Assembly: GCA_943372995.1 (NCBI GenBank)
Contig: CALSAQ010000003.1
Location: 297,443 to 329,442 of the forward strand
Direction: 5' to 3'
DNA: 32,000 nt
Source of the DNA: Sphingobacterium thalpophilum
Lineage (GTDB): Bacteria > Bacteroidota > Bacteroidia > Sphingobacteriales > Sphingobacteriaceae
Each line of letters opens with the position of its first letter. Positions within the stretch are counted from its first letter, which is position 1. Position numbers and translations under genes: made by a program. A model generated the notes under the pieces. The model saw only the letters and a program-made list of their open reading frames with translations, was not told the DNA's origin and did no database searches. This document shows positions 6,001 to 30,100 of this stretch, one piece after another.

Positions 6001-8150
6001 AAATCGGTTGCTGCTTCAGAAATCGTTTGATACCTAGCTCCTACACCACCAACGGTATATGTACCATTCATCGCCGATTTATAATTGATATTTTTAATCG
6101 TATCGTTTGAGTTTCTATTATCAGCAACGGTATTCGGTAAACTCGACCAAGCATGAATTGTATATGCAGTATCTAAACCTATAGATTGTAAACCTACATA
6201 TACCATGGTATCTTGACCAGATCCTAAATTCCCAGTATAATTAAATGGTGTTCTTGGGATTCCATCTACTGTCCAATTAATTTGTGCTGATGTTAAATCA
6301 TTAGCTCCAAAGTTTTTCAAACGGAAGCCTATAGGGTTATTACCCGCACAAGATCCATTAACTAACGTCATTGCAATAATTCCAGCATCGTTTAATATAG
6401 GAGTAAATTCATAAGCACCAGGATCCGGATTGGTTGCATTTCTTGCTACCCCATTAATATCCTCTGTTACTTGAGGAATTGGTGTTCCGATATTATTCAA
6501 ATCAAATGAGTTTGGAGTAAAGTCACCTGCGAGTACATTGGCAAATAATGCACGAGCGCTCACAGAGTTCTGATCCCACATATTTGAGTTTGCCGTTTTC
6601 CAATTTGCTAAAGTGACAAATGGAGTTGATACAAAATATCCAATATTTCTTTGTCCTGCTTTACCTACGGTTGTATCAACATATATATTATTATAGTTGA
6701 TTGTAGCCGTAACATCTGCAGTATTTACAAAAACACCATGTTTATTCCCGTTACCTGCTTTAGAAATAACAATATTATTGTTTAAGTATTTTACTCCAGT
6801 AGCTGCTGCGGTAGTATAAATACCAACCGCACCTCCTGCAGTTGCATTCGGGTTATCAATATGTACTGTATTATTAAAATACCAAATACTATCACTATTA
6901 TTTGTATGGAAACCATACTGAGTACCATTACCTCTTAAATTATATGCAAGATTATTTCTAAGGATCATTTCTTTCCCTGCTCTTGCATCGTTACCTGTAA
7001 CAAAGAACGCATAGAAATTGGATGTAGAAGTAGGGACTTGGAAGAACACATCGTGTACTCTGTTTTTTTCTACTAACATCGATTGGTTATGTGTGGTAAA
7101 GTACATTCCGTAATTACCAGCATAGGTTAATCTATTAGGTTTCGATATATCGTTAGAAACGATTTGTGTACTATCTGTTGCTGCGGCATATACCCCATAC
7201 AAATAATGATCTTGTATCGTATTGTTTCTAATTATATTTCCTTTAGACAAATGTTGAGAACCATTTGTTCCAACTAATGCCACACCAGCATATCCACCTC
7301 TAATTAAATTATTCTCAATAATATTATAGCTCGCATTAGTAGCCACAATATAGTTTGCACTCGAACCCGTAAAACTAATTGCAGAAAAATCTACAGTAGT
7401 AGTATTCGGATCCATTAATATCTGACAGTTTTTTATTCTATTATAATTTGCACCATTACCTATTACTACAGGTAAACAATACAATGATGTTTCTTCGTAT
7501 GTAATTGTGAAATTATCGAACGTAGTATAGTCTGTACCATTTAAAAACACAATATGTTTATTGTTTACTTTACTTGAATTAATGGTATCAATAATAGTTG
7601 CACCATTACCATTAAATACAATAGTATTCGTTGCACTTGCACCAAGAATTTCTTTTAGTTCAATCTGACCAATGTATGGACCTTCTAATGGGTCCACATT
7701 AAATACTACAGGACCGCAAACACCTCTTTCATTTAAGTCTTTTACAGCTGCAAGTAAGTTTGGATAATTTGCTGTTAAGCCACCAATAGTATAAGTTCCT
7801 GCTGATAATGCAGGACCATCAGCATGATATAAAATTGTATCATTTGCTGGAAATTTATCGGCAACACCATTAGGTAAGTTAGTCCATGCTTTTATATCTA
7901 TAGGTTGACCCACAGGGAAATTAATTGAACCTATTGCTACAGTTGCGCTTGCATTCGTAGCTAAAGAACCATTATATACAAAAGGTGCTTGTGCAACACC
8001 ATTGATTGTCCAATTTACATCTACAGAAGTAATGGTATTAACACCTAAGTTTTTTATACGGATACGTACCGAATCTGACCCACCAGCACATATACCTTTA
8101 TGTGGTACAATTTGATCGATAGTTGCATTTAGCGAATAATTAAAATCAAT
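1..8150 (-). repeat. Intragenic tandem repeat of a module of about 1.70-1.72 kb: 4 full copies plus 1 partial copy at the window edge. The copies are diverged at the DNA level.
   Basis: The module-end motif P-D-x-G-A-[YF]-E-F recurs on the minus strand at 1281-1304 (PDIGAYEF), 2994-3017 (PDMGAYEF), 4689-4712 (PDIGAFEF) and 6406-6429 (PDPGAYEF). The spacings are 1713, 1695 and 1717 nt. After each motif comes a CARDB-like stretch (xCAGxNPIxxxxKNxGxNxLTSxxxNWTVxG), then GTYT[IV]GG...GVCGPV, then the beta-helix rungs. Confidence 0.85.
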
Positions 8151-8846
8151 ACGCAATTGAGGGTGATTCACACTCGATGTACCTAGGGTTGCTGCAGGAG
8201 TACTACCCGCTGTTGAACTAGCATATTTAACCTGATTAGTAGCATAATCAGGAACACCTGTTTGTGTATCGTAAATCCAAGTCACTGCCGTTGATGCAGA
8301 TGTTTGAATGTATTCTACATACACCGCAATATTTCCACCTGTATAGTTGAATGGACTTGTAAAAGAAAAAGTTTTAAATCCACTTGTACTACCTAGTATA
8401 GAATTTGGATTCCCATCAAACACTAAAGTTGCTGTTGCAATTTCTGTAGCCCATGTTAAACTTCCACTCCCGAAATTTGCTAAGCCTGTATTTTTAATAT
8501 ACATCTTAAAATTTGGAGATCCAGTTGGAGCCGTAGTTACTGCTTTTCGAAATGCTAAAGCAACAATTTGATCTCCATTAGTTAATCCAGGAAACAATGT
8601 TGATGGATAAATATATGCTGTACGATTATAACGTGCAGCAGTTGTTCCACAGTTCATTGGTCCATATGTTACAGAAGCAGTTGATGTTCCGGAAGGACCA
8701 ATAGTAATACTTGTTTGTGAATAACCATTACGATTAACAAGCAGTACCATTAATGATAACAACAGTAATTTTAATGAAAACTCATATAGAGTTTTTAGCG
8801 ATAAGTAGCCGACCTTAGCGGTAGCTGAGCGTAGTGCTTTTTCCAT
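1..8846 (-). CDS. Giant secreted/cell-surface repeat protein. The 5' end is complete and the 3' end runs off the left window edge (more than 2948 codons visible). It has a signal peptide, a unique N-terminal domain of about 230 aa, and at least 5 tandem modules of about 570 aa (CARDB/Ig-like domain plus right-handed parallel beta-helix).
   Basis: The start ATG appears as 'cat' at 8844-8846 on the + strand. Hand translation gives MEKALRSATAKVGYLSLKTLYEFSLKLLLLSLMVLLVNRNGYSQTSITIGPSG.... I hand-translated 8846 to about 5900 and 1310 to 1 with no stops. The codon phase of the start (8846) agrees with the last full codon at 5..3 (GCT). The ORF track appears to list only ORFs with both a start and a stop in the window; an ORF starting at 8846 would be listed if it terminated here, and it is not. 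Beta-helix rung motifs recur (NNxIxxN, GxYGIY, NNTI), and each module ends in PD[IMP]GA[YF]EF. Confidence 0.85.
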   Translation of the reverse strand, partial: MEKALRSATAKVGYLSLKTLYEFSLKLLLLSLMVLLVNRNGYSQTSITIGPSGTSTASVTYGPMNCGTTAARYNRTAYIYPSTLFPGLTNGDQIVALAFRKAVTTAPTGSPNFKMYIKNTGLANFGSGSLTWATEIATATLVFDGNPNSILGSTSGFKTFSFTSPFNYTGGNIAVYVEYIQTSASTAVTWIYDTQTGVPDYATNQVKYASSTAGSTPAATLGTSSVNHPQLRIDFNYSLNATIDQIVPHKGICAGGSDSVRIRIKNLGVNTITSVDVNWTINGVAQAPFVYNGSLATNASATVAIGSINFPVGQPIDIKAWTNLPNGVADKFPANDTILYHADGPALSAGTYTIGGLTANYPNLLAAVKDLNERGVCGPVVFNVDPLEGPYIGQIELKEILGASATNTIVFNGNGATIIDTINSSKVNNKHIVFLNGTDYTTFDNFTITYEETSLYCLPVVIGNGANYNRIKNCQILMDPNTTTVDFSAISFTGSSANYIVATNASYNIIENNLIRGGYAGVALVGTNGSQHLSKGNIIRNNTIQDHYLYGVYAAATDSTQIVSNDISKPNRLTYAGNYGMYFTTHNQSMLVEKNRVHDVFFQVPTSTSNFYAFFVTGNDARAGKEMILRNNLAYNLRGNGTQYGFHTNNSDSIWYFNNTVHIDNPNATAGGAVGIYTTAAATGVKYLNNNIVISKAGNGNKHGVFVNTADVTATINYNNIYVDTTVGKAGQRNIGYFVSTPFVTLANWKTANSNMWDQNSVSARALFANVLAGDFTPNSFDLNNIGTPIPQVTEDINGVARNATNPDPGAYEFTPILNDAGIIAMTLVNGSCAGNNPIGFRLKNFGANDLTSAQINWTVDGIPRTPFNYTGNLGSGQDTMVYVGLQSIGLDTAYTIHAWSSLPNTVADNRNSNDTIKNINYKSAMNGTYTVGGVGARYQTISEAATDLNNRGVCGPVIIDVNKNAGPYNEQVRFDQIVGTSAVNTVRVLGHGSALNFSSISSVVRYGFYLNGSDYVTIDSFVITPAYGATNYGWGIFLGTNSDYNKITNNIINLNNDIITQNYTGITLTGSTSVLNSTGGLFVGNLIENNTIYGGYYNINIYGVAGSNALTRANRIIGNKMYDPYHYSVSLFNQDSAEVSKNEMSRSTRVTSVNFVGVYCNGVSGSTKIDGNNIHDAFNANPSTTQSPYGIYFTNCPHSAGREAIVTNNVVYNFAGSGGHYGLYAGGTSSYIRFYNNTISLDNKTSTTGSAYGFYQTGGTSNIEVKNNTFSITRGGSSVKYGIYLATNPPGVTADYNNYYINATSGNVGYYSSAKATLADWKAANSNAYDQNGFSVDPEYRSLQKNNFVPNSSVLNNAATPIAAVTKDYNGTTRSVTPDIGAFEFTPTVNDAEVMSIEGPNIVCNGSNPVPVKIKNKGTATLSSLVVNWSVNNVVQTPFNFTGAMPKNKDSIITIGSFVGVSNTVYNIKVWSTLPNGLADENTLNDSTQKLNILTGLAGTYTIGNTPANYTSFNAAVSDLLSRGVCGPVVFSVNASDGPYEEKVTITTVPGASSTNTVTFKGNEALLTTVITASADRGVLTLNNADYIIIDSLTIEVDPTSTYGYPVVITNTSDNNIIRNSVLKSINVGSSNYAGLVIGAPGSISTASNSRFNLIENNTIIGGYYGITVYGTSGSNALTAGNILKDNKIQDFYYYGLYHYYADGTQIIGNDISRPNATQMSSTTYATYILGASQNLLIEKNKIHNMFDQDPSGTGALYALHLSTGAAQVGKKTIVRNNLVYNINSSGTHYGMYNSTSGNVQYYHNTIILDHQATAGTAYGFYQTGSADSIELKNNNFVISKTGSGTKYGIYMVTAATPLLTNYNNLYVPTGNVGYNSSARATLADWQAVNATFDPNSISVNPIFPYRSIGNFMPASPAINDLGTPLANVTSDILGNARSLTTPDMGAYEFTPVNDDAAITSFEVGSVCAGNNPIAVKLRSLGANALTSVNIHWTLNGVPQTMIAYSGSLATGADTSLILGNINFVVGNSYSLKVWSSLPNGVTDPNPLNDTLYANNIRTGLRGVYTIGGVGANYPTLSAAANDLNNYGVCGNVTFNVNPTAGPYNEQVTLNAVAGTSDTSKIVFNGNGALVTYNATTTSSRQLFKLRGTDYVTIDSFILEMNPSSTYGFPIHVLSGSNHNTIKRNIIKTIPNSSSTNYGGIVFSGSESSPSTAGLDMSFNTIENNTIYNGYYTMVIYGTSTNSASCKGNVIRNNKIYDSYIYSLFTVGVDSLIVSGNDISRPTRSTSSTFYGIYNSTNSFKLLVEKNKIHNPFDGNLTSTSASYGIYTASSDAAPGSSIIKNNVIYNFNGQGAHYGLANNGSDSIYYYHNTVVMNDTAQSSAVVNGFLQTSTAAIGVKLKNNNFVITRPGSANRIGMYWTTSTSSFESDYNNFYIINGVGVNAVSYFVSNYNTLADWKASNSNIYDQNSIDINPLFNLASSGIFRPFSGGFDNKGIYLTEVTTDIMDSVRGVTPDIGAYEFTAVGEDASVSSLGFASVCAGVNPVSVNILNSSANILSSVDVNWSVNGVAQPVYNFSGSLASTASTTVTLGNYNFLQGQAYTLKFWTSSPNGFVDANPTNDTLLINNFTTALSGTYTIGGVGANFPSLVAAVNTLNAGGVCGPVEFIMNPAAGPYDGQVSFGNIDGASSTNTIIVRGRGSVITGTLANTEERHLIRLNGTKYLTLDSIYANVSVASSVGYALVIGNNANYNTITNGQYHSIAATSNSFGGIMFVGTPNSPTSASNSSYNRIENNLITGGYYGISVYGASGGNALNKGNILKNNVIKDFYSYGIYNMYADSTYIMGNDISRPGQTATTTTYGIYCGGASQDIIVEKNKIHHLFELLNTNTSAMYGIGFATSAAQVGKQSIVKNNLLYALNNSGTHYGLYNSTSGNVAFYNNTLVDDFA

Positions 8847-9132
8847 ATTGTAGTATAAACTTTTTAGAAGTACTTACTAATATAGAGCAAAAACTATACT
8901 AATAATAACTATATAATTTAAATTTTTTAGTAAATTTTACCAAAATATTACTATTCTGCCTTTGAACTATTCTGCTATTTATACTAAAAACATGATTTTT
9001 TTATATTGTATTTATAATGAAGTTTAAACATTAAATCATTTTGTGTATGAGGAATATTATATAAATCTTTATGTAACTTTTTAGTTACATAAACTAAAAT
9101 CAAGAGCTCGGATGTTTTATTAATTTTGAGAT

Positions 9133-10125
9133 ATGAAAAAAGTAAGAGTAGCGATAAACGGATTCGGTAGAATTGGACGGGTATATCTAAGAAATGCATT
9201 ATTGAAACCAGAAATTGAAGTAGTTGCTATTAACGATATTACTGATAATAAAACACTAGCTCATCTATTTAAATACGATTCTATCCATAGAGGATTCAAT
9301 GGCTCTATTGAGATTGTTGAAGAGGGTATTGTAATTAATGGACAATTAATAAAAACATTTTCAGAAAAAGATCCAAGTGCATTGCCATGGGCTGAATTAA
9401 ATATAGATGTGGTGATTGAATCTACAGGTAAATTTTTATCTCGAGAAAAAGCGAATCTTCATTTAAGCGCAGGTGCAAAAAAGGTAATCCTCTCAGCCCC
9501 TCCTAACGACAAAGATATTCCAACTATAGTAATTGGAGTAAACGATTATATTTTAAAAGAGAATCATACCATCATTTCAAATGCATCCTGCACTACAAAT
9601 AATGTGGCTCCAATGGTAAAAGTACTCGATGATTTAGGGGAGATAGAAGATGGATACATAACTACTGTACATTCATATACTGGAGATCAGAATTTACACG
9701 ATGCACCTCACAGAGATTTGCGCAGAGCAAGAGCTGCTGCAGTTTCTATGATTCCAACAACTACTGGCGCAGCTAAAGCCATCACTAGCATTTTTCCTCA
9801 TTTAGAAGGTAAGCTTGGTGGGGCGGGAATTAGAGTCCCTGTTCCAAATGGTTCTCTAACCGATTTCACTTGCTTATTAAAAAAAGAAGTAACTGTTGAT
9901 GAAATAAATGAAGCCTTTAAATTAGCCTCTGAAAAAGAATTAAAAGGAATATTAGAATATACAGAAGACCCTATAGTATCTATCGACATACAAGAAAATC
10001 CTCATTCATGTATATTCGATGCTCAACTTACTTCAATTGTTGGCAAACTGGTGAAAGTTGTAGGATGGTACGATAATGAATGGGGTTACTCAAACCGATT
10101 GGTAGAATTAACCATTGTATTTTAA
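9133..10125 (+). CDS. gap: Type I glyceraldehyde-3-phosphate dehydrogenase
   Basis: 330-aa ORF. It has the N-terminal Rossmann motif INGFGRIGR and the catalytic motif SNASCTTN, and is full-length and colinear with the GapA family. Confidence 0.95.
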   Translation: MKKVRVAINGFGRIGRVYLRNALLKPEIEVVAINDITDNKTLAHLFKYDSIHRGFNGSIEIVEEGIVINGQLIKTFSEKDPSALPWAELNIDVVIESTGKFLSREKANLHLSAGAKKVILSAPPNDKDIPTIVIGVNDYILKENHTIISNASCTTNNVAPMVKVLDDLGEIEDGYITTVHSYTGDQNLHDAPHRDLRRARAAAVSMIPTTTGAAKAITSIFPHLEGKLGGAGIRVPVPNGSLTDFTCLLKKEVTVDEINEAFKLASEKELKGILEYTEDPIVSIDIQENPHSCIFDAQLTSIVGKLVKVVGWYDNEWGYSNRLVELTIVF

Positions 10126-10772
10126 TCTTTAATCAACCTCTCATTAAGTGCTTTTGCTACTGCTTCCGACATAGTAGTAACATGTAACTTCATGTATATA
10201 TTGCGAATATGTGTACGAACTGTTTCATAACTAATATTACACTCTGCGGAGATTGCTTTGTATGATTTACCTAATGTTAACAATTTTAAAATCTCTAACT
10301 CTCGTTTTGTTAAATTGTATTCGTCTTTCGCTTTAGGCGGCTGAATCTCTTCTGAAAATTTCTTTAAAATTCGTCGCGCAATACTTGGTGTCATGGGTGC
10401 CCCACCAGTCATTAAATCCTCTATAGAAGAAATGAGAATTTCTGGAGTGCTATTTTTTAATAAGTAGCCTTGTGCTCCAGCACAAATTGAATTGAATATT
10501 TTTTCATCATCTTCGAAAACAGTAAACATCAAAACTGGAATATCTAATCCTGCCTTACGTATCTCAGTAACAGCTTCTATCCCATCCTTAGGTGGAATCT
10601 CGATATCCATAATAACTAAGTTGGCTGCCACTCTATTTATTTTATTCACAATATCATCATAAGTAGCAAATGAATCGACTAGGTGAATATGCTCATATCC
10701 ACTAAACATTAATGCTAATGAGTTTCTAATTTTCTCATTGTCATCAAAAATAATTACTCTAATTTCTACCAT
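10122..10772 (-). CDS. NarL/FixJ (LuxR-type HTH) response regulator
   Basis: 216 aa. The receiver domain has the acidic pocket FDD, the phospho-acceptor context VIMDIEIP, and the conserved Lys in YLLK. The C-terminal LuxR/GerE HTH reads LTKRELEILKLLTLGKSYKAISAECNISYETVRTHIRNIYMKL. It lies 8 nt downstream of the kinase gene. Confidence 0.9.
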   Translation of the reverse strand: MVEIRVIIFDDNEKIRNSLALMFSGYEHIHLVDSFATYDDIVNKINRVAANLVIMDIEIPPKDGIEAVTEIRKAGLDIPVLMFTVFEDDEKIFNSICAGAQGYLLKNSTPEILISSIEDLMTGGAPMTPSIARRILKKFSEEIQPPKAKDEYNLTKRELEILKLLTLGKSYKAISAECNISYETVRTHIRNIYMKLHVTTMSEAVAKALNERLIKD

Positions 10773-10780
10773 TTTACTCT

Positions 10781-11470
10781 CTACAATTTAACCTTTAGTT
10801 TAACCTGAGTTCCATTGTTTGGGCTCGAACTCATTTGATATTGGGCTCCAATATTTTTTGCTCTAACTTTCATGTTTAGCAAACCGTTACCTTGCTTGTC
10901 TGTGTTCATATCAAATCCAACACCATTGTCTTTTATTTCAATCTCCAAGAATTTCGACAAAAGTGTTATTATAATTTGTACTCGACTTGCTTCAGAATAT
11001 TTTGCTATGTTGTTAATTGCTTCCTTACATATCAAGTACAAATCTCTTCTCATTAGCATATCTAAGTTACTGATATTATTAATATTCGAGTTTAGTTCAA
11101 AATTAATACTTTTTGCACTTAGAATCTTATTTGCATAGGCTTCAATTTTTTGAATAAGATTTTGAAGTGAATCATTTTTAGGGTTTACTACCCAAACAAT
11201 GTCGCCCATATTCTCAACTGTATCTCTCGCACTATCTGCCATTTGATTTAGAATTAATTCCGCATCTGCTAGTTTGTTGCTGTTCATTCTTTGCTTTACT
11301 GCTTGTGCATAAAATGATATACTACTCAAAGTAGCTCCTACATCATCGTGTAAATCTTGTGCAATGTTGTTTCTTATGGTGTTTACATACTTAGATTTCC
11401 TCAATACTCTCAGTCCATAGAAGTAAAAAAATACCGAGCAAATAAATAATAGAATAGAGACAAATATCAT
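10781..11470 (-). CDS. Small membrane-anchored sensor histidine kinase (HisKA_3 + HATPase_c) with no obvious sensor domain
   Basis: 229 aa. It has a single N-terminal TM (MIFVSILLFICSVFFYFYGL), the H-box DLHDDVGATLSSI, the N-box EAINNIAKYS, and the G-boxes DNGVGF and GNGLLNM. Confidence 0.85.
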   Translation of the reverse strand: MIFVSILLFICSVFFYFYGLRVLRKSKYVNTIRNNIAQDLHDDVGATLSSISFYAQAVKQRMNSNKLADAELILNQMADSARDTVENMGDIVWVVNPKNDSLQNLIQKIEAYANKILSAKSINFELNSNINNISNLDMLMRRDLYLICKEAINNIAKYSEASRVQIIITLLSKFLEIEIKDNGVGFDMNTDKQGNGLLNMKVRAKNIGAQYQMSSSPNNGTQVKLKVKL

Positions 11471-11534
11471 TTAATAATAATAAATTAATTAATGTCTAAT
11501 TTAACTATTAAATTTGAAATGCAAGACTTCTACA

Positions 11535-12944
11535 ATGAGATATCTAGAATTTAAACTTTATATTGAGAATAGGCTAAAAACAGAACTGCCCGAGTCTTTA
11601 TCGTATCATTCTTACGAACACACACTAGATGTTTTACATTGTGCTTTGTTTTATGCTAATGAATACAATCTATCTGAATATGAAAAAGAGCTTTTAGCTG
11701 TTGCAGTTCTTTTACACGATTCTGGTTTTATCTACACCACTCATCAGCACGAAGAAAAAAGTTGTGAGCTTGCACAAGAACTTCTACCTAAATTCGATTA
11801 TGGCATTTCAGAGATTAATCAGATTTGTGGAATGATACGTGCCACAAAAATTCCTCAAGTGGCAAACAATCTATTGGAAGAAATTATATGTGATGCCGAT
11901 CTTGACTATTTAGGCAGAGAAGACTTTTGGGAGATAGGGAATAAATTATATGCTGAATTAATTGAATTGAAAATAATTCGCGATAGAAAAGATTGGGATA
12001 AACTACAAATTGATTTTTTAGAAAAGCACAAATATTTTAGCGAATATGCACTGCTGAACAGAGAGCCGAAGAAACAAGAACATTTAGCAAAAGTAAAATC
12101 GAGATACGAGTCTCATCCAGAGCAAACTGCTCAGAACATTGTAGTACCTATTGATTTCACTCCAATCACAGAAAATGCTCTTCAATATGCTTGTACTATA
12201 GCCGCAAAAAACAGCGATGCCATACAACTTATTCATATTGTAAAAAAAGGCGAATTAAACATTAATTCTATAGACATAAAACTTAAAAATCTAGCCAGTG
12301 AGTATTCTAAAAAGTACTCCATCTCAATACATGCAAACATTAAAGAGGGAAGTATATTTAGTGACATTGCTGAATTTGCAGAGGAAATAAAGGCAGTACT
12401 AATAATTATGGGAACTCATGGTGTAAAAGGAATGCAATATGTAATTGGGGCCTTTGCTATAAAAGTGATTTCAAGCAGTACCGTTCCAGTATTAATTACC
12501 CAAGCTCAATCGAAATTAAAAGATTCGTTTAGTAGAATTGTTATTCCGATTGACCATACCGGCGAGAATAAACAAAAGGCCTTACAGACTATCCAATTTG
12601 CAAAAATATTTAATTCTGAAGTATATCTCTTTAAGCAAAACAGTGGCGATGAAGACAAGAAAAACAGGACACAGTTAAACCTAAATTTTTTTAAAAAGCT
12701 GTTACTTTCTCAAGATGTGAACTGTTATGTTGAAGAAATGAGTATTTCCGCGAAAGATTTTCATAAAGAATTTATCAAATTCGCCGAGAAAATATCCGCA
12801 GATCTCATCATTATATTAACTAGTCATGATAAAGGTATTATCGATTACGTGTTAGGCCCAACAGAGCAACAAGTGATTAACAATACTGCAAATATCCCAG
12901 TGATGTGTGTAAACCCATTACAACTTATTTATACTAGGAAATAG
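11535..12944 (+). CDS. HD-domain metal-dependent phosphohydrolase fused to two tandem universal stress protein (UspA) domains
   Basis: The track ORF starts at a TTG at 11514; the first ATG (MRYLEF) at 11535 is the more likely start. HD motifs: [25 protein letters not shown]. Usp domain 1 starts at about 12138 (IVVPIDFTP...IIMGTHG...[11 protein letters not shown]). Usp domain 2 starts at about 12534 (IVIPIDHTG...IIILTSH...[13 protein letters not shown]). Confidence 0.8.
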
Positions 12945-14206: not shown

Positions 14207-14893
14207 CTAGTAGTGTATTCTTAGTACCACCCTCCTATTTATCGATTGGTTATTTGGTATTGGCTCCCCTTTTGGATTTCTATTAGGCACTACCGGTTGT
14301 GTATCTGCATACCCTGAAGCTTTTAGTCGACCAGGCTCCATACCTCTCTCAATTAAATACCTAACTACATTTGAAGCTCTTGCAACAGATAGCTCCCAGT
14401 TTGATGGGAAGTTTATATTATTTATAGGATTATCGTCGGTATGCCCCTCAACATCAATATGGAAATTAGCTTTTTTCTTTTTACTTACCGAATTAATAAT
14501 TTCGAAGATTTTGTCTACAATCTCCTTCCCTTCAGGTAATAATTTTGCATCCCCACTATTGTAAAAAGAATTACTCAAGAAACGCATATTAATCCCATTG
14601 TCTTTATTTTCAATCTCGAGATTTTTGTTCTTCACCTCTTTCATTAACATCGAATCGAGCTGATGTTTTATTTCACTTAATGGAGTAACAACTTCCTTAT
14701 TTTTTACTTTCGATCGGTAACTTGCTTTTACCCTATCCCAAACGTTCTGATCGACATTAGCTGAGGCAAATAATAAAATAAAGAAACAAAGTAGCAATGT
14801 AATCAAATCGGCATACGTAATTAACCAAAGCTCGCCTGGCTCTTCACCATGCAGCGACTTCATTACTTTACGTTTGTTATTATCCGACGACAT
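14207..14893 (-). CDS. MotB/PomB-type stator subunit (single TM with conserved Asp, plus an OmpA-like peptidoglycan-binding domain)
   Basis: 228 aa. The TM segment is WLITYADLITLLLCFFILLFA, with an Asp in the position of the proton-relay Asp of MotB. The C-terminal OmpA-like signature is VEGHTDDNP...SNWELSVARASNVVRYL...GYADTQP...NRRVVLRI. Its start overlaps the motA-like stop (TAATG at 14893). Confidence 0.85.
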   Translation of the reverse strand: MSSDNNKRKVMKSLHGEEPGELWLITYADLITLLLCFFILLFASANVDQNVWDRVKASYRSKVKNKEVVTPLSEIKHQLDSMLMKEVKNKNLEIENKDNGINMRFLSNSFYNSGDAKLLPEGKEIVDKIFEIINSVSKKKKANFHIDVEGHTDDNPINNINFPSNWELSVARASNVVRYLIERGMEPGRLKASGYADTQPVVPNRNPKGEPIPNNQSINRRVVLRIHY

Positions 14894-15720
14894 TATTTGT
14901 TTGAATTTTGTTTGCTATCGTTTTCCGATTCTCTACTAACAAATGACATTAATTGGTCTCTGATTACCAATGTTGGCTTATTCTCTTTAAGTAATAATAA
15001 TCCTTCTAGAATTATTATTTCTCTTCTTTGAGTAAGTGCGGCGTTGTATTTTATCTTCTTTGCTAATGGGATAAAAAATAAATTTGCAGAAGCAACTCCA
15101 TATAATGTACCAATTAATCCGGTAGAAATACCCGGACCAATATTCGAAGGGTCGTTCAAGTTATTTAACATCACAATCATCCCAAGTACTGTTCCCAACA
15201 TCCCGAATGCTGGTGCAGAATTAGCCATTGAGTGAAATACATCCGACATTTGTAATGCTTGGTTGTATTCTTTATCGATACTCGTTTCGCCCATTGTTCT
15301 AATATCATTAGACGAATAGTTCGTATTGTATAAATCGAACAACAATTTCACAAAAGTATCTTTCTCATTTTGTGAAATATGATTCATAAACTCTTTCTTA
15401 TCTTTTTTTATTCTATCGGCCCAACTCACTACCATTTCAATATCTTCATTAATAGAGATGGTTTTGTGTTTAGTCTGACTGAATAATCTTCCAAAATTTC
15501 TTAAAGCCGAAAAAACTACATTAATAGGATACATCACAAACATAGCTGCGAGCACTCCACCAAATACAATGAAAAAACCTGCAATATGTATAAAAGGATT
15601 TTTTAAGAAATTTGGCAAGTAATGTTCCAATCGTATTGCTCCTGCTGTATCCATAATACCTAATACAACCAAAGCAGTACAAATAACAAATCCTAAAAAT
15701 GTACCTAAAGAAAATTTCAT
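14893..15720 (-). CDS. MotA/PomA-type proton-channel stator subunit (4 TM)
   Basis: 275 aa. It has two N-terminal TMs, a cytoplasmic loop of about 100 aa, and then SAPAFGMLGTVLGMIVML and GPGISTGLIGTLYGVASANLFFIPLAKK. That is the MotA/TolQ/ExbB family signature, with prolines in both TM3 and TM4 as in MotA. Confidence 0.85.
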   Translation of the reverse strand: MKFSLGTFLGFVICTALVVLGIMDTAGAIRLEHYLPNFLKNPFIHIAGFFIVFGGVLAAMFVMYPINVVFSALRNFGRLFSQTKHKTISINEDIEMVVSWADRIKKDKKEFMNHISQNEKDTFVKLLFDLYNTNYSSNDIRTMGETSIDKEYNQALQMSDVFHSMANSAPAFGMLGTVLGMIVMLNNLNDPSNIGPGISTGLIGTLYGVASANLFFIPLAKKIKYNAALTQRREIIILEGLLLLKENKPTLVIRDQLMSFVSRESENDSKQNSNK

Positions 15721-15722
15721 AA

Positions 15723-16292
15723 TTATTTTTTTGAAGTAATATCTTTTAATTCTTTAGCTGTTGGTACTCTAATCTCTGGGTCTAGTTTTGCTGCCTGCAT
15801 CCAAAGCTCTTTTGCTTTTTCTTCGTTACCCATAACATATAAAACACTTCCCTTTAATGATAAGGCCTCAGCTGTTTCAACAATTTTTAATGCTTCATCT
15901 ATATAGTCGAGTGCCGAATTATAATCATCAACATATAAAAACTCTTGCGCTCTTCTATAATATTTCATAGACAGGTTAATTGCATCCATTGCCTCTCTAC
16001 TTACATTAAGTGTTCCATCTATTACATCTTTCTTAGACTTAGGATCGGTAGTCATGGTAAGCACAAACTCTTCATTACCTTTTCCCACAGCGTACTCAAT
16101 GGAAGCTGCGTTGTTTTTGTATTTCACATTTACAGGGTCTTTAACCGAATAAGCTCTACGAGCATTTTCTGAGATACGTTGTTGCTCGGCTAAATCCTCT
16201 ATAGTATATCTTGTTTCACATGAACACAAGACCAATACTGTAGCGAGTAAGCTATATTTAAGGCCTGTATATAAAGCTGATTCCATAACCAA
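15723..16292 (-). CDS. Putative TPR-repeat lipoprotein
   Basis: 189 aa. The N-terminus has a hydrophobic stretch ending in a lipobox-like LVLCSC. The C-terminal half is TPR-like (YYRRAQEFLYVDDYNSALDYIDEALKI...GNEEKAKELWMQAAKLDP). The true start may be the Met two codons downstream (16286). It overlaps the upstream gene by up to 35 nt. Confidence 0.6.
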   Translation of the reverse strand: MVMESALYTGLKYSLLATVLVLCSCETRYTIEDLAEQQRISENARRAYSVKDPVNVKYKNNAASIEYAVGKGNEEFVLTMTTDPKSKKDVIDGTLNVSREAMDAINLSMKYYRRAQEFLYVDDYNSALDYIDEALKIVETAEALSLKGSVLYVMGNEEKAKELWMQAAKLDPEIRVPTAKELKDITSKK

Positions 16293-17325
16293 AATTTTGT
16301 GTTTGAAGAGAGCTCTTCGTATTTGTAAAAACTGAATTAATAAGGAAATATCTGAAGTCTGTTTCCAGACTTAAGTTCTGTGTAAAGTTTATCATTAATC
16401 CCTGACGAACATAGGGCACCACTTCCGACGATATTAAAGTTCCTATCGACTGAAATGCTTCCATCCAATATTTTCTAGGTTGATCGTTTTTCTTTAAAAA
16501 GCATAACGAGTAATAAAATGCAGCATTAGGCATTATCTTGCCAAATTTCTGAAAATTTGTAGTATCAATATCAGAGGCAGTGAGCTGTAGATATGAAAGT
16601 CCTGTTTTAAATCCATAATACCCATTATGAGTACGGTTAAATGGTTGGCGCCATGCTACGTTTGCATCGTATAGCGAGGTAAGAAATTTATCACCTAAAT
16701 CAACATTATCAACAATATAATATTGTGTTTTTAAGAAAGTAATTCCTAAGCCTACTTGTAACTCCGCTCTTCGTGGGTTATATAGATCAGGGTTCGAATT
16801 AATCACTGTACTATATATCAATTCTTTTGACCTAGATTTTACAACTTGTAAATTAATTTGATAACCGGTAATATGATCATAGGTTAACTGTGCATATACT
16901 AAAGCTTGCAAAGAATACTTATCTATCACTTCACTCATTCTATTCTCATCGAGTATTAAACGCTCTAATGAATTCTGACGAGTGATGGTGAGATTAGAAT
17001 CTGTTCCGTTCACAATAGTAAGCGCTTTTTGTTTAAACTCAGGAGCCGAAACTACAGTAAAACCTGCACCTGCAAAAGTCCCTTCTAATCGGCTTCTAAT
17101 TTGTGAAGCTTCACTTTCATTGATAATGTATTCTGGATAGTCGAACTGTGCAATAGAAACTCTTTTATATAACAAATCATTCACCTTTACTTTATCAGCA
17201 ATCTCATCCATTAAATCGACTAATTCCAATTGCTTCCTAATGATTGGGTTGTTTTTATCTATTTGCGAATATGATGATACATTCCAAAAACTAAAAAACA
17301 GCACAACTATTATAATCTTTTTCAT
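16258..17325 (-). CDS. Secreted envelope protein: a periplasmic alpha/beta N-terminal domain plus a beta-strand-rich C-terminal half (possible outer-membrane beta-barrel)
   Basis: 355 aa. The signal peptide is MKKIIIVVLFFSFWNVSSYSQ. The C-terminal half shows alternating hydrophobic/polar strands (AELQVGLGITFLKT, GYYGFKTGLSYLQL, LMINFTQNLSLETDFRYFLI, NFGYGISFIYRP). No family was recognised with confidence. Confidence 0.5.
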   Translation of the reverse strand: MKKIIIVVLFFSFWNVSSYSQIDKNNPIIRKQLELVDLMDEIADKVKVNDLLYKRVSIAQFDYPEYIINESEASQIRSRLEGTFAGAGFTVVSAPEFKQKALTIVNGTDSNLTITRQNSLERLILDENRMSEVIDKYSLQALVYAQLTYDHITGYQINLQVVKSRSKELIYSTVINSNPDLYNPRRAELQVGLGITFLKTQYYIVDNVDLGDKFLTSLYDANVAWRQPFNRTHNGYYGFKTGLSYLQLTASDIDTTNFQKFGKIMPNAAFYYSLCFLKKNDQPRKYWMEAFQSIGTLISSEVVPYVRQGLMINFTQNLSLETDFRYFLINSVFTNTKSSLQTQNFGYGISFIYRP

Positions 17326-19160
17326 TAAGCTACAAGTTTTAAAGTTTTACGTATAGAGTCGATAATTACTTTTCTTGCACGATCTCTATCTTCTGGGGTT
17401 ACGGCATTTCCACTTTCCAATTCGGCTTTAATTAGCGACTGCTCACGAGGTGGACGTTGAACAATAATTTTGTTTTGAACATGACTACTAATTCCTGTAA
17501 GTGCGTTAACAATGGTAGTAGTATCAATATCTCTTAATGCAGTTTCTAGTTGTAAGTCGGTTAAGTAAACTACATTTTTAAATCCAACAAATTGTTGCTT
17601 AATATTATTTGCCAATTCTAAATCTTGCGATGCAATGGTACTAATTAATTGATCTTGATCTTCATCCTGCATTTGATCTAAAATATCAAGTATAGATTGT
17701 AATCCATCAAAAGCAACATTCTTCATACCTTTCACATCAATTGCTTTCTTAGAGAAATAGGTTGCCACTTCTCTATATATAGAAGAAGAGATAAAATCAA
17801 TTTTACTCATCTTCATTAAAATTGAAGAACGACGATTAATTTCTATCATGCTCAATACATTTTTACTTCTCTTACTTTCCAATTGAGCTAATAATATTGC
17901 TGATAAATTATCATCCTCTTCTTTAATCATATGAATAATTTGAGAATCGGTAATTTGATTTAAGAATTCAAAGAGGTCTTCATTTCTATCAGGCTCTGCA
18001 TTTAACGAAAGCAATTCTTTACTAAAATCTCTTGCCTCTTGATATTTATCATTATGTGATTTTAATTGATGATTGGAGATTGCCTGATTTAATTCCGAAT
18101 ATGCATTGTCGGACATAAAAGGTCTTAAGAAATTAATCAACTTCGGATTAACAGCATTAAGAGCATTTGCAGCTCTAACCCTTCCCTCTTCTGGATTAGT
18201 TAACATCCAAGTTTCAAACATACTCGCCACTTCTTTAGGATTACTAATTACAGATGTAATGACGTGTTGGCGATTAAATTCGTAATTGATTATATCTTCT
18301 GTTTGATAATTACTTCCACCAGAATCGTTTCCGTTTGGATATATAATATTTAAATCATTTGGATTAGCATTATTCCCTAATAATTTAGCTTCCTCATCAC
18401 CTTTAGATTTCTTATCCGAATCTTTACTCTTACGATAAAGTAAGTACGTAACAAATACTATTATGATAAAACAAAGAATTAGTAAAATAACAAACACATA
18501 CAAAAGAGTATTATCTGTTTCAGCTTTCTCTACTTTATTCTCTGTAGGTTGTACAGCTGGTCTTTGTTCAGGCTCTTTCTGCTGGAAGTAGTTAGGTACT
18601 GGATTAGCAGGTGCTGCATTATTTTTTGCTGTTAAATCTTCTAGGCCTTTTGGAAATACTGAACGTTTAATTTTTACAACATCCCCTTTCGTTTCATCAA
18701 TGGGTATAATTGATCGGATTAATGAATTGATAAAGTCAATATCCGAATTCGAATAAGTAGTATCTACAATTACATTTACATATAGGTATTCTACTTCCTC
18801 AATGCTATATGTGTAATTCTTAGTTGTGTCGACCTCAGAATCTTGATATCCTTTTGGAAGCACTGGCATTCCTGGTAAACGCTGTAAACTTTTTTTTCTC
18901 TTATTTGATGCTGTTGGCTTAATGACCTCCACATTCCCTTGCAACATATTTATATCGACCAAAAAAGTACTCGGAGCAAAGAATTTGGTTAATTCTTGAC
19001 GAACTACGATCTCAAAATTGTTGGCTTGATTTAATGGCTCTGGGTTTTGTCCAGTTTTGGGTTGATACAGGAAAGATTGACTACTGGCTTGTTCAATACA
19101 AACAACACACAGCAAAAAGCTCAAAAAGGTATTAATAAGTATCTTCTTTCCCTCGCTCAT
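17325..19160 (-). CDS. Two-TM protein with a FliF-like periplasmic segment fused to a cytoplasmic full-length FliG homologue (N, M and C domains)
   Basis: 611 aa. An N-terminal hydrophobic segment spans aa 7-27, a periplasmic region spans about aa 28-218, and a TM spans aa 219-242 (LLYVFVILLILCFIIIVFVTYLLY). The cytoplasmic region, about aa 325-608, is colinear with FliG. Matching stretches: GRVRAANALNAVNPKL (FliG-N style), LFEFLNQITDSQIIHMIKEEDDNLSAILLAQLESKRSKNVLSMIE (FliG-M), and FVGFKNVVYLTDLQLETALRDIDTTTIVNALTGIS...RPPREQSLIKAELE...ARKVIIDSIRK (FliG-C, including the torque-helix region). The comparison is against FliG sequences recalled from memory, not a computed search. Confidence 0.7.
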   Translation of the reverse strand: MSEGKKILINTFLSFLLCVVCIEQASSQSFLYQPKTGQNPEPLNQANNFEIVVRQELTKFFAPSTFLVDINMLQGNVEVIKPTASNKRKKSLQRLPGMPVLPKGYQDSEVDTTKNYTYSIEEVEYLYVNVIVDTTYSNSDIDFINSLIRSIIPIDETKGDVVKIKRSVFPKGLEDLTAKNNAAPANPVPNYFQQKEPEQRPAVQPTENKVEKAETDNTLLYVFVILLILCFIIIVFVTYLLYRKSKDSDKKSKGDEEAKLLGNNANPNDLNIIYPNGNDSGGSNYQTEDIINYEFNRQHVITSVISNPKEVASMFETWMLTNPEEGRVRAANALNAVNPKLINFLRPFMSDNAYSELNQAISNHQLKSHNDKYQEARDFSKELLSLNAEPDRNEDLFEFLNQITDSQIIHMIKEEDDNLSAILLAQLESKRSKNVLSMIEINRRSSILMKMSKIDFISSSIYREVATYFSKKAIDVKGMKNVAFDGLQSILDILDQMQDEDQDQLISTIASQDLELANNIKQQFVGFKNVVYLTDLQLETALRDIDTTTIVNALTGISSHVQNKIIVQRPPREQSLIKAELESGNAVTPEDRDRARKVIIDSIRKTLKLVA

Positions 19161-19378
19161 AATTTATCAATGAAATAGTCGATTGGTCTAGTTAATTAGG
19201 GTACTACACATTATAGCCGCTTTTAAAAATATGTATATTTTATATAAAAACAAACATTTTTGAAGCTGCTACAAGCCAATAAATGCCATTAAAGCCCTTT
19301 TTAGACTACTGAAACATGAATAAACAATTAGAAAGAATTGAAAATCAGCAGGTCATAGGCATAATCAAAACCAAAATA

Positions 19379-27182: not shown

Positions 27183-30100
27183 ATGTTAAATGCTATAATT
27201 TCATTTTCTGTTCGTCAGAAATTGATCATCGCTTTATTTACCCTAGGTATAATTCTTTGGGGAATTTATGAAGCGACTCGTTTGCCAATTGATGCGGTAC
27301 CCGATATTACCGACAATCAGGCACAAATTATTACCGTTAGTCCAGCTTTAGGAGCTCCTGATGTGGAGCGTCTGATCACTTTCCCTATAGAGCAGGCAAA
27401 TAGTAATATTCCAGGTATAAAAAAAATTAGAAGTTTTTCCAGATTTGGTCTTTCATTAGTCACCATTGTCTTTGAAGATGATGTAGATATTTATTGGGCA
27501 AGGCAACAAATTGCAGAACGACTATTACAAGTACAAAATGAATTGCCTGATGGCATTGGTAACCCGGAATTAGGTCCAGTAACTACAGGACTTGGCGAAA
27601 TTTATCAATATGTTGTACGACCTAAAAAGGGGTATGAAAATAAATTCAGTCAGACTGATTTGCGTACCATTCAAGACTGGATAATACGCAGGCAATTGTT
27701 AGGTGTAAAAGGAGTTGCCGATGTTTCTAGTTTTGGTGGTGCTTTGAAACAATATGAAGTAAGTATTAACCCTGCTCGTTTACAAGCCAATGGTGTAAGT
27801 ATTTCTGATGTATTTGCTGCCATTGAGAATAATAATGAAAATACTGGAGGAGCATATATAGAAAGAGGTGAAAGCATACTATACATTCGTTCTGAAGGTC
27901 TGATGAAAAACTTTAGCGATATCGAAAACTGTATTGTTAAAAATACAGCTAATGGAAATCCCATTAGAATAAGAGATGTTGCAAAAGTTCAGTTTGCAGA
28001 AGCTATAAAATATGGCACATTATGTTATAATGCCGATGGTCAGGTAGCTGGTGCTGTAGTAATGATGCTAAAGGGAGCGAACTCTTCTGAGGTGATTAAA
28101 AATGTAAAGACTAGAATTGAAGAAATAAAAAAGACATTACCTGAAGGAATAGAGTTAGAAGCATTTTTAGATCGTAGTAAAATGGTAAACAATGCCATAG
28201 GAACTGTGGAGAAAAATCTACTCGAAGGTGCGCTCATTGTAATATTTGTATTAGTACTCTTTCTTGGTAATCTTAGAGCTGGCTTAATAGTAGCTTCTGT
28301 AATTCCTTTATCCATGCTTTTCGCTATCATCATGATGAACATGTTTGGTGTAAGTGGGAACTTGATGAGTTTAGGAGCAATTGATTTCGGATTAATTGTT
28401 GATGGTGCAGTAATCATTGTGGAAGCGATAATGCATCAGCTTAGCCATTCCAAAAAATTCAATGTAATAAATAAACTCAGTCAGGAACAAATGAACGAAG
28501 AGGTTAAAGGTTCGGCCTCTAAAATGATGAACTCTGCTGTATTTGGTCAAATAATTATTCTAATAGTTTATCTACCAATATTCACTTTGCAAGGTATAGA
28601 AGGAAAAATGTTTGCTCCAATGGCTGCTACTGTTGCCTTTGCATTATTAGGGGCATTCATCATGTCGCTCACTTATGTGCCAATGATGAGTTCATTATTC
28701 ATTAGTAAAAAAATCCATCACGAAGCCAATTTAGCTGAACGTGTATTCTTCAAAATAGAAAGAGTATACCAACATTTATTAGACAAGGTACTTCATAAAT
28801 CTATGATAAGCTTAGGTATTGTTCTATCATTTTTTATATTTTCTATTTTCATATTAATAAACATGGGTGGTGAATTTATCCCTGAATTAGAAGAAGGTGA
28901 TTTTGCCGTAGACACTAGAGTACTTACAGGGAGTAATTTGAATACCACTGTAGAAGCAACCACAGCGAGTGCTAAAATTTTATTAGAAAAATTTCCAGAA
29001 GTAGAAAAGATAGTTACAAAAATTGGAAGTGGCGAAATACCTACCGACCCCATGCCTATAGAGGCTAGTGATATGATGGTCATATTAAAAGACAAAGAGG
29101 ATTGGACATCTGCTAGCAGTTATAATGAACTTGCTGAAAAGATGAGTGTTGAGCTGGCGAAAATTCCTGGAGTAACGGCTGGATTTCAATACCCTGTTCA
29201 AATGAGATTTAATGAATTAATGACGGGAGCGCGACAAGATGTAGTATGTAAAATCTATGGTGAAGACTTAGATACATTAGCTGCTTATGCTCAAAAGCTC
29301 GGCAATATTGTATCAAGTGTTGAAGGAGCAAAAGATTTATATGTAGAAGCCATTGGAGGAATGCCTCAAATGGTTGTTAGATACAACAGAGAATCGTTAA
29401 CACAATACGGTGTAAATATCAGCGACTTGAACAGAGTGCTACGAACCGCTTATGCTGGAGATGTGAGTGGCAAAATATACGAAGGAGAAAAGCAATTTGA
29501 GTTAGTACTCAGGATGGATGCATCTATAAAAGATGATGTGAGTAGCATTGAAGAACTACTCATCCCAACACCAAATGGTTCACCAGTACCATTACGCTTA
29601 TTGGCAAGCATCGACATTATTGATGGACCAAATCAAATACAAAGAGAAGATGCCAAACGAAGAATTATTGTTGGATTTAATACACGTGGTAGAGATGTTC
29701 AAAGTATAGTAAAAGAGCTACAAGAGAAAGTCGACAAACAAATTAATTTACCCGACGGATATTATACCGTTTATGGTGGAGCTTTTGAAAATTTAGTAGC
29801 CGCAAAGAACAGATTATCTATTGCTGTTCCCCTTTCATTATTACTTATTCTATTACTACTCTATTTTGCATTTGGCTCAATAAAACAGAGTATCTTAATT
29901 TTCTCAGCAATACCACTGTCGGCAATTGGAGGAATCTTTGCTTTAAGCGCAAGAGGTTTACCATTTAGCATATCTGCAGGTATAGGTTTCATAGCGTTGT
30001 TTGGTGTAGCTGTATTAAATGGAATAGTACTTATCGCCGAATTTAACCGACTAAAAAAAGAAGGCTGGACTGATGCAAGAAAAATTGTACTGCAAGGAAC

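Follow-up and report, generated by a model that had tools for sequence, protein, structure and literature searches.

What does the flagellar rotor protein FliG do in a locus that encodes a stator and no further part of a flagellum? This question is raised by a gene cassette of Sphingobacterium thalpophilum that lies in the stretch of 32,000 nucleotides (nt) analyzed here (assembly GCA_943372995.1, contig CALSAQ010000003.1, positions 297,443 to 329,442 of the forward strand), referred to below as the window. FliG is treated, to our knowledge, as a flagellum-specific rotor protein. An earlier note, made from the letters of the window alone, had claimed an open reading frame (ORF) at 17325-19160 on the reverse strand in which a FliF-like periplasmic segment is joined to FliG, and this ORF, of 611 amino acids (aa), was present as claimed. 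Our analysis indicates that its product naturally joins a reduced FliF, head to tail, to a complete FliG, and that it probably serves as the rotor subunit in a machine of five genes that is complete in itself. The five-gene context, absent from the earlier note, is the most important fact about the locus. We give about even chances to the broader proposal that the cassette represents a new and widespread class of envelope-spanning rotary machine, one that drives a beta-barrel protein and a tetratricopeptide repeat (TPR) lipoprotein and not a propeller.

FliG domains of the fusion protein

The features of the fusion gene, in window positions with (-) for the reverse strand, are listed from the N-terminus of the protein to its C-terminus (RBM, ring-building motif; TM, transmembrane; AF2, AlphaFold2).

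17325..19160 (-): FliF(RBM3)-FliG fusion gene, 611 aa, gene 1 of the cassette (ORF, Pfam, PDB profile, Foldseek)
19077..19160 (-): probable cleavable signal peptide, aa 1-28, with a K-rich n-region, a 16-residue h-region and a predicted cut between ...ASS and QSF
18648..19055 (-): periplasmic FliF RBM3-like (YscJ_FliF_C) domain, aa 36-171 (AF2, Pfam, Foldseek, profile)
18435..18506 (-): TM helix, aa 219-242 (hydropathy; AF2 helix 215-249)
18309..18434 (-): low-complexity, predicted disordered cytoplasmic linker, aa 243-284, variable in the family alignment
18198..18308 (-): two conserved helices with ...SNPKEVASMFETWMLTN, like the FliF C-terminus, aa 285-321 (AF2 helices 285-306 and 308-321)
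17976..18197 (-): FliG N-terminal domain, aa 322-395 (region profile against PDB, Foldseek)
17721..17975 (-): FliG middle domain with degenerate EHPQR, aa 396-480 (Pfam, alignment with Thermotoga maritima FliG)
17328..17720 (-): FliG C-terminal domain, aa 481-611 (Pfam, Foldseek)
17412..17459 (-): torque helix in FliG_C, aa 568-583

The earlier note had considered that the C-terminal region might fall into another helical family; profile and fold searches both placed it in FliG. In Pfam, the fusion protein matched FliG_C (PF01706) over aa 508-605 at E=5.7e-15 and FliG_M (PF14841) over aa 406-476 at E=1.2e-8, and the NCBIfam model TIGR00207 (fliG) was matched over aa 394-605 at E=7.8e-24. The score for TIGR00207 did not reach the fliG equivalog level (84.6 bits vs a cut-off of 226.7) in this membrane-anchored protein of 611 aa; canonical FliG is soluble and about 330-350 aa long. 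When a profile built from 12 family members was searched against PDB, it matched the T. maritima fragment of the FliG middle and C domains (MC; 1lkv) at E=8.9e-21 over 209 residues without gaps, which bears out the ungapped alignment that the earlier note had proposed, and it also matched the FliG proteins of Aquifex, Vibrio, Helicobacter and Salmonella.

Structure comparison gave the same assignment. The AF2 model of the fusion protein had a mean predicted local distance difference test (pLDDT) score of 63, and aa 285-610 were all-helical. The 13 best Foldseek matches of this model in PDB were all FliG. Full-length Aquifex FliG (3hjl) was matched at E=2.9e-9 over 311 aligned columns, and Salmonella C-ring FliG was matched as well. 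Identity to the T. maritima C domain (1qc7) was 30% over 85 columns with a root-mean-square deviation of 2.0 Å, and identity to the MC fragment was 21%, in line with the roughly one quarter that had been counted by hand for the C domain. Among the matches of the FliG_C region was 8ucs_H, a FliG bound to MotAB. For the N-terminal domain, the best PDB match of a profile of aa 284-400 was FliG_N of T. maritima (5tdy_B; E=4.4e-4). The cytoplasmic part is a FliG with all three of its domains, N, M and C. The earlier note had assigned aa 325-608 to FliG; the FliG content stood, but the region begins earlier, with FliG_N at about aa 322-390 and a motif like the FliF C-terminus before it.

MgtE_N was also matched in this region, at E=2e-3 in the window protein and at up to 6.7e-8 in 32 of 51 relatives (Pfam), and MgtE_N and FliG are homologous folds. 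The C-terminal region could on these grounds be read as an MgtE-N-type regulatory domain or ARM-like ion sensor that has no part in a rotor. We consider this extremely improbable, as FliG_C was found in all 51 relatives (best E=3.6e-27) and FliG_M in 49, both far above MgtE_N. The uniformly FliG structural matches, the conserved arginine of the torque helix and the co-encoding of MotAB, which is obligate in most lineages, also argue against it.

That arginine, R572, corresponds to R281 of Escherichia coli and T. maritima FliG. Its position and a proline before it were the most conserved positions of the torque helix among the 51 relatives, with R in 46 and K in 4. E580 corresponds to D289 and is E or D in 24 of the 51, whereas A579 stands in the D288 column, which is A or S; the equivalents of K264 and R297 are both Thr. 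The earlier note had read the helix in the same way, as keeping the Arg and one acidic residue and having Ala at the other. The EHPQR motif, which binds FliM and which the note had proposed to score, reads E-D-D-N...K in the fusion, and only the Glu is kept in the family. On the stator side, the column equivalent to R90 of E. coli MotA was K or R in 29 of 30 aligned MotA proteins of the family and Ser in one (from the Elusimicrobia locus L016).

The FliF-FliG junction

In flagella, the C-terminal helix of FliF is the element that binds FliG_N (structure 5TDY). Directly before FliG_N in the fusion protein stands SNPKEVASMFETWMLTN, which is similar to the sequence at the very C-terminal end of FliF from Salmonella, NDPRVVALVIRQWMSNDHE (checked against residues 535-560 of 6scn_A). 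The family motif gnPk.v..vl..Wi aligns to residues 542-559 of Salmonella FliF, NDPRVVALVIRQWMSNDH. A profile of the segment scored the Salmonella FliF peptide at 15.0 bits, a value that none of 5000 composition-preserving shuffles reached (maximum 11.2). A phmmer search of PDB with aa 285-350 alone gave chance-level matches only, so that the resemblance is one shown by the family profile with its shuffle control. If fliF and fliG had been fused head to tail, a motif like the FliF C-terminus would be expected in just this place, right before FliG_N.

Periplasmic domain and membrane topology

Hydropathy and the AF2 model confirmed the N-terminal hydrophobic segment (aa 7-27, helical) and the TM helix (aa 219-242, nt 18435-18506) that the earlier note had described, as well as the low-complexity linker after the TM helix (pLDDT <50 at aa 246-286). 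The two-TM topology of FliF, which the note had also proposed, held for the C-terminal helix; the N-terminal segment looks instead like a cleavable signal peptide. In nearly all relatives the h-region is followed by a small-x-small pattern (A/S-x-A) and then Q, with the predicted cut before the Q, a pattern that cleaved signal peptides of Bacteroidota typically show. Because of this conserved pattern, the N-terminal segment is probably cleaved and the mature protein probably single-pass, unlike the two-TM FliF.

Only about 190 periplasmic residues are present in the fusion. Their secondary structure was predicted as alpha 40-58, beta 66-82, beta 116-133, alpha 138-151 and beta 161-167, an alpha/beta prediction of the kind expected for an RBM fold, and the best structural matches were FliF rings. 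An insertion at aa 83-115, modeled with low confidence, sits where FliF has its beta-collar. It contains an LPG(L/M)P..P motif (aa 95-102, window 18855..18878 (-)) that is invariant or nearly so in the 51 relatives, which share 17-30% identity; the TPR lipoprotein is a candidate partner that might dock on this motif. A K/RGD-x-V...FP motif closes the RBM3-like domain.

The earlier note had called the FliF-like character of the periplasmic part weaker than that of the FliG part, and the searches agreed. YscJ_FliF_C (PF08345) was matched over aa 110-169 at E=1.1e-5 (26.3 bits vs a cut-off of 23.8) and in 13 of the 51 relatives, nearly at full length in P0165 and P0166. Foldseek returned FliF S-ring/RBM3 chains (8z4g, 6sd1, 7d84 and others) at E of about 1e-3, and SpoIIIAG and PrgK weakly. 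When a profile of the periplasmic domain was compared with all PDB sequences, FliF proteins were the sole top matches (E=0.015 and 0.026), the second in three collinear pieces across RBM3. RBM1/RBM2 (PF01514) was matched neither in the fusion at E<=1 nor in the 51 relatives at E<=0.01. Because YscJ_FliF_C and FliF were matched and PF01514 never was, the periplasmic part corresponds to the RBM3 of FliF only, with the beta-collar shrunk to a short loop; support for its membership in RBM3 is moderate. With a complete FliG and the FliF C-terminus-like motif at the junction, these data support the view of the protein as a natural, much shortened fusion of MS-ring and rotor.

The five-gene cassette

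The fusion gene is the first of five same-strand genes that overlap or lie 2 nt apart. The start of the second gene overlaps the stop of the fusion, and the start of motB overlaps the stop of motA. The other features of the cassette are as follows.

19161..19378 (-): upstream intergenic region, 218 nt, the only sizeable gap and the presumed promoter region of the operon
16258..17325 (-): 355-aa secreted protein, an OmpA/OmpX-like outer-membrane beta-barrel with a periplasmic alpha/beta N-domain (AF2, Foldseek)
15723..16292 (-): 189-aa TPR lipoprotein, lipobox L-C-S-C (Pfam, sequence)
14893..15720 (-): 275-aa flagellar-type MotA, 4 TM helices and a large cytoplasmic domain (Pfam, NCBIfam, PDB)
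14207..14893 (-): 228-aa MotB, with plug, channel Asp29 (TYAD) and OmpA-like peptidoglycan-binding domain (Pfam, NCBIfam)

A scan for consensus promoters and terminators scored no better than shuffles, and the promoter is placed from the gap only. In the window, the cassette is flanked by the housekeeping genes pgk, an S4-domain protein gene and dapD. In a pair of related loci, an additional 2.5 kb or so lies between the S4-domain gene and the fusion (L003:5377-8001 and L009:5488-8001), where the window has 218 nt.

By its matches, the stator belongs to the flagellar type. MotA matched MotA_ExbB (PF01618) at 2.5e-22; among NCBIfam models it matched the flagellar MotA/MotP/PomA at 4e-39 to 1e-18, compared to 1.4e-5 for TolQ, all of them below the equivalog cut-offs. 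MotA and PomA chains in PDB were matched nearly over their full length at 2.7e-27 to 1e-23. MotB matched MotB_plug (PF13677) at 1e-15 and OmpA (PF00691) at 2.5e-17, and the MotD/MotB/MotS models at 1.7e-44 and weaker. In a 2025 classification of MotAB homologues, the plug, the linker and an enlarged cytoplasmic domain distinguish flagellar stators from generic ion transporters (PMC12505986), and the cassette stator has the flagellar hallmarks.

The 355-aa protein had no match in Pfam or NCBIfam. Its AF2 model, which was built on a shallower alignment, contains a barrel at aa 188-353 with pLDDT of about 90 that matched the TM domain of OmpA at 6e-5 and also Ail, OmpX and NspA; the N-terminal alpha/beta domain was of low confidence. 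The protein ends in YRP, YRF or VQF across phyla. The TPR lipoprotein matched TPR_2 and TPR_1 at about 1e-9 (Pfam).

A stator set beside envelope proteins also suits the main rival to a rotary machine, a static tether or force transducer of the Tol-Pal kind. The fusion would then be a non-rotating inner-membrane platform, pulled or flexed by MotAB turnover, and its outputs, acting through the barrel protein and the TPR lipoprotein, would be outer-membrane tethering, invagination at division or cell-wall remodeling. The gene set parallels tolQ-tolR-tolA-tolB-pal-cpoB in its MotA and MotB, inner-membrane transducer, periplasmic/outer-membrane partner, OmpA-type peptidoglycan binder and TPR protein. 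The position among housekeeping genes is consistent with such a role, relatives with a LysM domain suggest peptidoglycan attachment for part of the family, and the N-domain of the 355-aa protein gave weak TolB/LpoB-like hints. However, these hints are of low probability (0.3-0.6 for the TolB structural matches) and lie in the low-confidence part of the model. The stator, with its MotB plug and its far stronger match to flagellar models than to TolQ, is of the flagellar type, the retained parts are the torque parts (FliG_C with its conserved Arg and the RBM3 ring domain), and there is no extended periplasmic domain like that of TolA or TonB. Taken together, these data make a transducer unlikely.

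Distribution, synteny and selection

To define the family, we performed an exhaustive hidden Markov model search of 1.84 billion cluster representatives (50% identity), which gave 141 matches below 1e-30. Among the best 150 representatives, 131 are at least 550 aa long (median 618) and 129 of these have an internal TM helix, so that the survey of homologues which the earlier note had proposed finds the fusion architecture common to at least 131 clusters at 50% identity. The named sources include Bacteroidota, Balneolaceae, Fibrobacterales, Elusimicrobia, Gammaproteobacteria and Deltaproteobacteria metagenome-assembled genomes (MAGs). Representatives of about 330 aa, such as P0127, which appeared to be unfused, free FliG-like versions, were rejected as contig-end fragments. 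When the homology search was repeated with an alignment of 51 sequences, it reached no further than the same 27 proteins and one ordinary FliG. NCBIfam (June 2026) holds no model for the fusion family.

The synteny set comprised 49 loci. Wherever enough downstream DNA was available, the order fusion-barrel-TPR-MotA-MotB was kept in five groups: ten Sphingobacteriales-type loci, about 25 marine Balneolaceae-like loci, and one locus each from Elusimicrobia, Fibrobacterales and GCA_050293925.1. One exception is a locus in a gammaproteobacterial MAG (L015:5191-19415, GCA_029884425.1), which has the same five genes in the order MotA-MotB-barrel-TPR-fusion. The flanks of the cassette are unrelated between lineages. 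When flanking ORFs were clustered, only five families recurred across lineages, in 46, 42 (the barrel protein), 38 (the TPR lipoprotein), 34 and 32 loci; the sixth-ranked family occurred in 11 loci of a single lineage. No other flagellar family, FliM/FliN and the export-gate genes included, was found within 10 kb in any of the 49 loci. Within the loci surveyed, the module keeps the torque-generating core of the flagellum without the parts to build or switch one.

Two sets of neighbors were recorded on their own account. In the gammaproteobacterial locus, a protein with Sel1 repeats and a SPOR domain precedes the cassette, and a BBP2 barrel and polysaccharide export genes of the Wza/Wzc/Wzy type follow it; these may hint at a function or may be a coincidence. 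In the Elusimicrobia MAG (L016:16090-21334), genes resembling type IV pilus and type II secretion system genes (PilX_N, T2SSF, T2SSE) lie directly downstream on the opposite strand.

The synteny data bear on whether the fusion is simply a divergent basal-body gene of a flagellated host, with FliF and FliG encoded apart. All of its homology is to flagellar proteins, some Balneolaceae are flagellated, and relatives carry the annotation 'flagellar motor switch protein FliG' at the Joint Genome Institute (JGI). We nevertheless regard this explanation as very unlikely. Neither the fusion nor its 51 relatives matched RBM1/RBM2, the domains that accommodate the export gate and keep the rod in place, the EHPQR motif is lost, the fliG equivalog score falls far short of its cut-off, and no further flagellar family lies within 10 kb in the 49 loci. 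Among the hosts are Bacteroidota of the Sphingobacteriales type and Fibrobacterales, and the carriers of the cassette look to be from mostly non-flagellated phyla. Bacteroidota were reported in a 2025 survey to lack filament, C-ring and MS-, P- and L-ring proteins (PMC12199754).

The same survey discusses relict flagellar genes in non-motile lineages, which leaves a functionless, decaying remnant of a lost flagellum to be considered. Reading frames were intact in all loci. Between the window and orthologous loci, synonymous sites were saturated (pS about 0.7), yet pN was 0.08-0.12 for the fusion, the TPR lipoprotein, MotA and MotB, similar to the 0.07 of pgk. Purifying selection on the cassette is strong. 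Gene order is kept across at least 5 phylum-level lineages, including that of the two genes without a flagellar counterpart, and the key catalytic and interface residues are retained. On the grounds of selection and synteny we reject the relic-gene reading, to which we would give next to no weight.

Proposed mechanism

If the fusion protein is a rotor subunit, the cassette could work as follows. What remains of FliF is the probable signal peptide, the RBM3/S-ring-type domain as the sole RBM, a single TM helix and, C-terminally, the motif for FliG binding. Many copies, in contact through their RBM3-like domains, would form a ring in the periplasm above a ring of TM helices, and each copy would bear its own FliG on the cytoplasmic face, so that a 1:1 stoichiometry would be built in. 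Engineered FliF-FliG fusions assemble rings, which indicates that such a fusion is mechanically tolerable. A MotA5B2 stator, encoded downstream, would be anchored to peptidoglycan by the OmpA-like domain of MotB; protons would pass Asp29, and the rotating cytoplasmic domains of MotA would push the torque helix of FliG_C at Arg572.

Because EHPQR is lost and no FliM, FliN or CheY gene accompanies the cassette, the ring would be expected to turn in one direction, with no switch. The cassette is without export gate, rod, hook and filament genes, and the output would therefore stay inside the envelope, most likely passing from the periplasmic ring, by way of the LPGLP loop, to the TPR lipoprotein and the barrel protein of the outer membrane. 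Candidate outputs are envelope remodeling and the movement of some outer-membrane component at the surface.

Several observations weigh against this mechanism. Only two of the five charged residues of E. coli FliG (K264, R281, D288, D289 and R297) are kept, and the MotA column that matches E98 of E. coli is non-acidic in the window protein. That column is variable across the cassette MotA proteins, and the helix alignment is ambiguous at the putative pairing of MotA E98 with FliG R281. Without FliM and FliN, a FliG ring may lack stability or take up a wrong orientation. The FliF sequence matches of the short periplasmic domain are marginal (E of about 0.01 to 1e-5), and AF2 confidence is moderate. 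Two loci, L014 and L018, carry the fusion and the TPR gene, the barrel gene being present or absent, and have no motAB next to them. Finally, in distant membrane-anchored FliG relatives (P0118, P0137 and P0145), a peptidoglycan-binding LysM domain replaces the RBM3-like domain, as would suit an immobile anchor more than a rotor that turns freely. One of these relatives has TPR repeats after FliG_C, and these sequences point to a wider superfamily of membrane-tethered FliG proteins.

Significance

In the 2025 survey, rotor proteins were reported to persist without a filament in about 11% of non-motile species, and the use of such 'half a motor' was left open (PMC12199754). The cassette offers a concrete, conserved and testable answer. 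As a compact module it would keep the RBM3 ring, the FliF-FliG junction, FliG and MotAB, the rest being replaced by two envelope proteins. If the rotary machine proposed here is correct, torque generation between FliG and MotA is not exclusive to flagella, and the module would be either a reduced offshoot of the flagellum or a surviving relative of a pre-flagellar motor. This bears on the order of flagellar evolution, namely whether a rotor-stator pair can exist without an export apparatus. In planktonic Bacteroidota, Fibrobacterota and others, the machine may power outer-membrane dynamics or a kind of motility, so far undescribed, that needs no flagellum, and it may reveal a new energy-coupled outer-membrane function or mode of motility in abundant, uncultured aquatic bacteria. 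For work on stator-rotor coupling, the five genes would provide a minimal system without the flagellar regulon of 40-plus genes.

Other genes of the window

Three further regions of the window were recorded. At 27183..31532 (+), a single 1449-aa ORF combines a complete AcrB-type resistance-nodulation-division (RND) pump (PF00873, aa 5-1033, E=1e-277) with an OEP/TolC-like domain (PF02321, aa 1268-1442); an RND pump and its outer-membrane factor are normally separate proteins in separate membranes. At 3..8873 (-), a secreted protein of at least 2957 aa has right-handed beta-helix repeats (PF13229, E=3e-23), with a signal-peptide N-terminus near nt 8873 and an ORF that continues past the start of the window. 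The regions 11514..12944 (+) and 10122..11470 (-) encode an HD-domain protein fused to two universal-stress-protein domains and, beside it, a short histidine kinase of 229 aa (HisKA_3 and HATPase). This kinase lacks both a sensor and a TM part and forms a pair with a response regulator of the LuxR type.

Comparison with known systems

In a literature search of 8 million papers and preprints we found no published description of the five-gene cassette or of a non-flagellar FliG-MotAB system. One close system is the flagellar motor itself. The rotor core of Salmonella, Vibrio and T. maritima resembles the fusion in its RBM3/S-ring domain, TM helix, FliG-binding motif, FliG N, M and C domains and torque Arg, and the flagellar stator resembles the cassette MotA and the MotB with its plug, channel Asp and OmpA domain. 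The MS-ring of FliF has about 33-34 subunits and houses the type III export gate. In contrast to the flagellar core, the cassette has FliF and FliG in one polypeptide, without RBM1 and RBM2 and with the beta-collar shortened to a loop; its N-terminus is probably a cleaved signal peptide and not a first TM helix, and EHPQR is lost. Unlike the flagellum, it is without FliM/FliN, export, rod, hook, filament and chemotaxis genes, and two of its partners lack a flagellar counterpart.

Scaffolds that surround the motor in the periplasm and place the stators are known from Vibrio (MotX, MotY, FlgT, FlgO and FlgP) and Campylobacter (PflA, PflB and FlgP). They share with the cassette the combination of TPR or Sel1-repeat proteins with outer-membrane-associated proteins, a likeness that is architectural only; neither the 355-aa protein nor the TPR lipoprotein matched a named flagellar accessory family in Pfam or NCBIfam.

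Other ion-driven 5:2 motors with non-flagellar outputs, namely GldLM/PorLM of type IX secretion and gliding, TolQR-TolA, ExbBD-TonB, AglRQS of Myxococcus gliding and ZorAB of Zorya defense, are alike in principle: a proton motor of the MotAB family drives an output that spans the envelope and includes outer-membrane and TPR components (PMC9389320, PMC12505986). However, their A and B subunits are generic and force passes through an extended periplasmic domain of the B-like or partner protein, never through FliG, whereas the cassette has a flagellar-type stator, on which the TolQ and ExbB models scored poorly, and FliG. Tol-Pal and Agl-Glt also have TPR proteins, OmpA-like domains and outer-membrane partners. 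The cassette contains no TolA, beta-propeller or Pal, and a PADLOC search for Zorya found no ZorA, ZorC, ZorD or ZorE and no sign of a defense system, only a generic similarity of MotB to ZorB.

Engineered FliF-FliG fusions assemble rings and, in Salmonella and Vibrio, are reported to support or be compatible with motor function (PMC4768692, PMC6079021, PMC10941966, PMC11481574); for the full-frame fusions of Salmonella, PMC4768692 cites Francis 1992 and Thomas 2001. In these laboratory constructs FliF has its full length (about 560-580 aa) and the flagellum around it is complete, whereas the window protein is natural and is without two thirds of FliF's periplasmic part.

The nearest natural precedent is the FliF-FliG fusion of Chlamydiaceae, a protein of about 330 aa with a shortened FliF in bacteria not known to be flagellated (Bergeron 2016, PeerJ 4:e1718, PMC4768692). 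It has an RBM2-like and a second RBM-like region with no SpoIIIAG-like RBM3, its FliG part resembles the middle domain only, and it was discussed in connection with the injectisome and not with MotAB (PMC4768692). Compared by the description in that paper only, the Chlamydia fusion has no torque-generating C domain, whereas the window fusion has RBM3, the N, M and C domains of FliG and a MotAB stator encoded in the same cassette.

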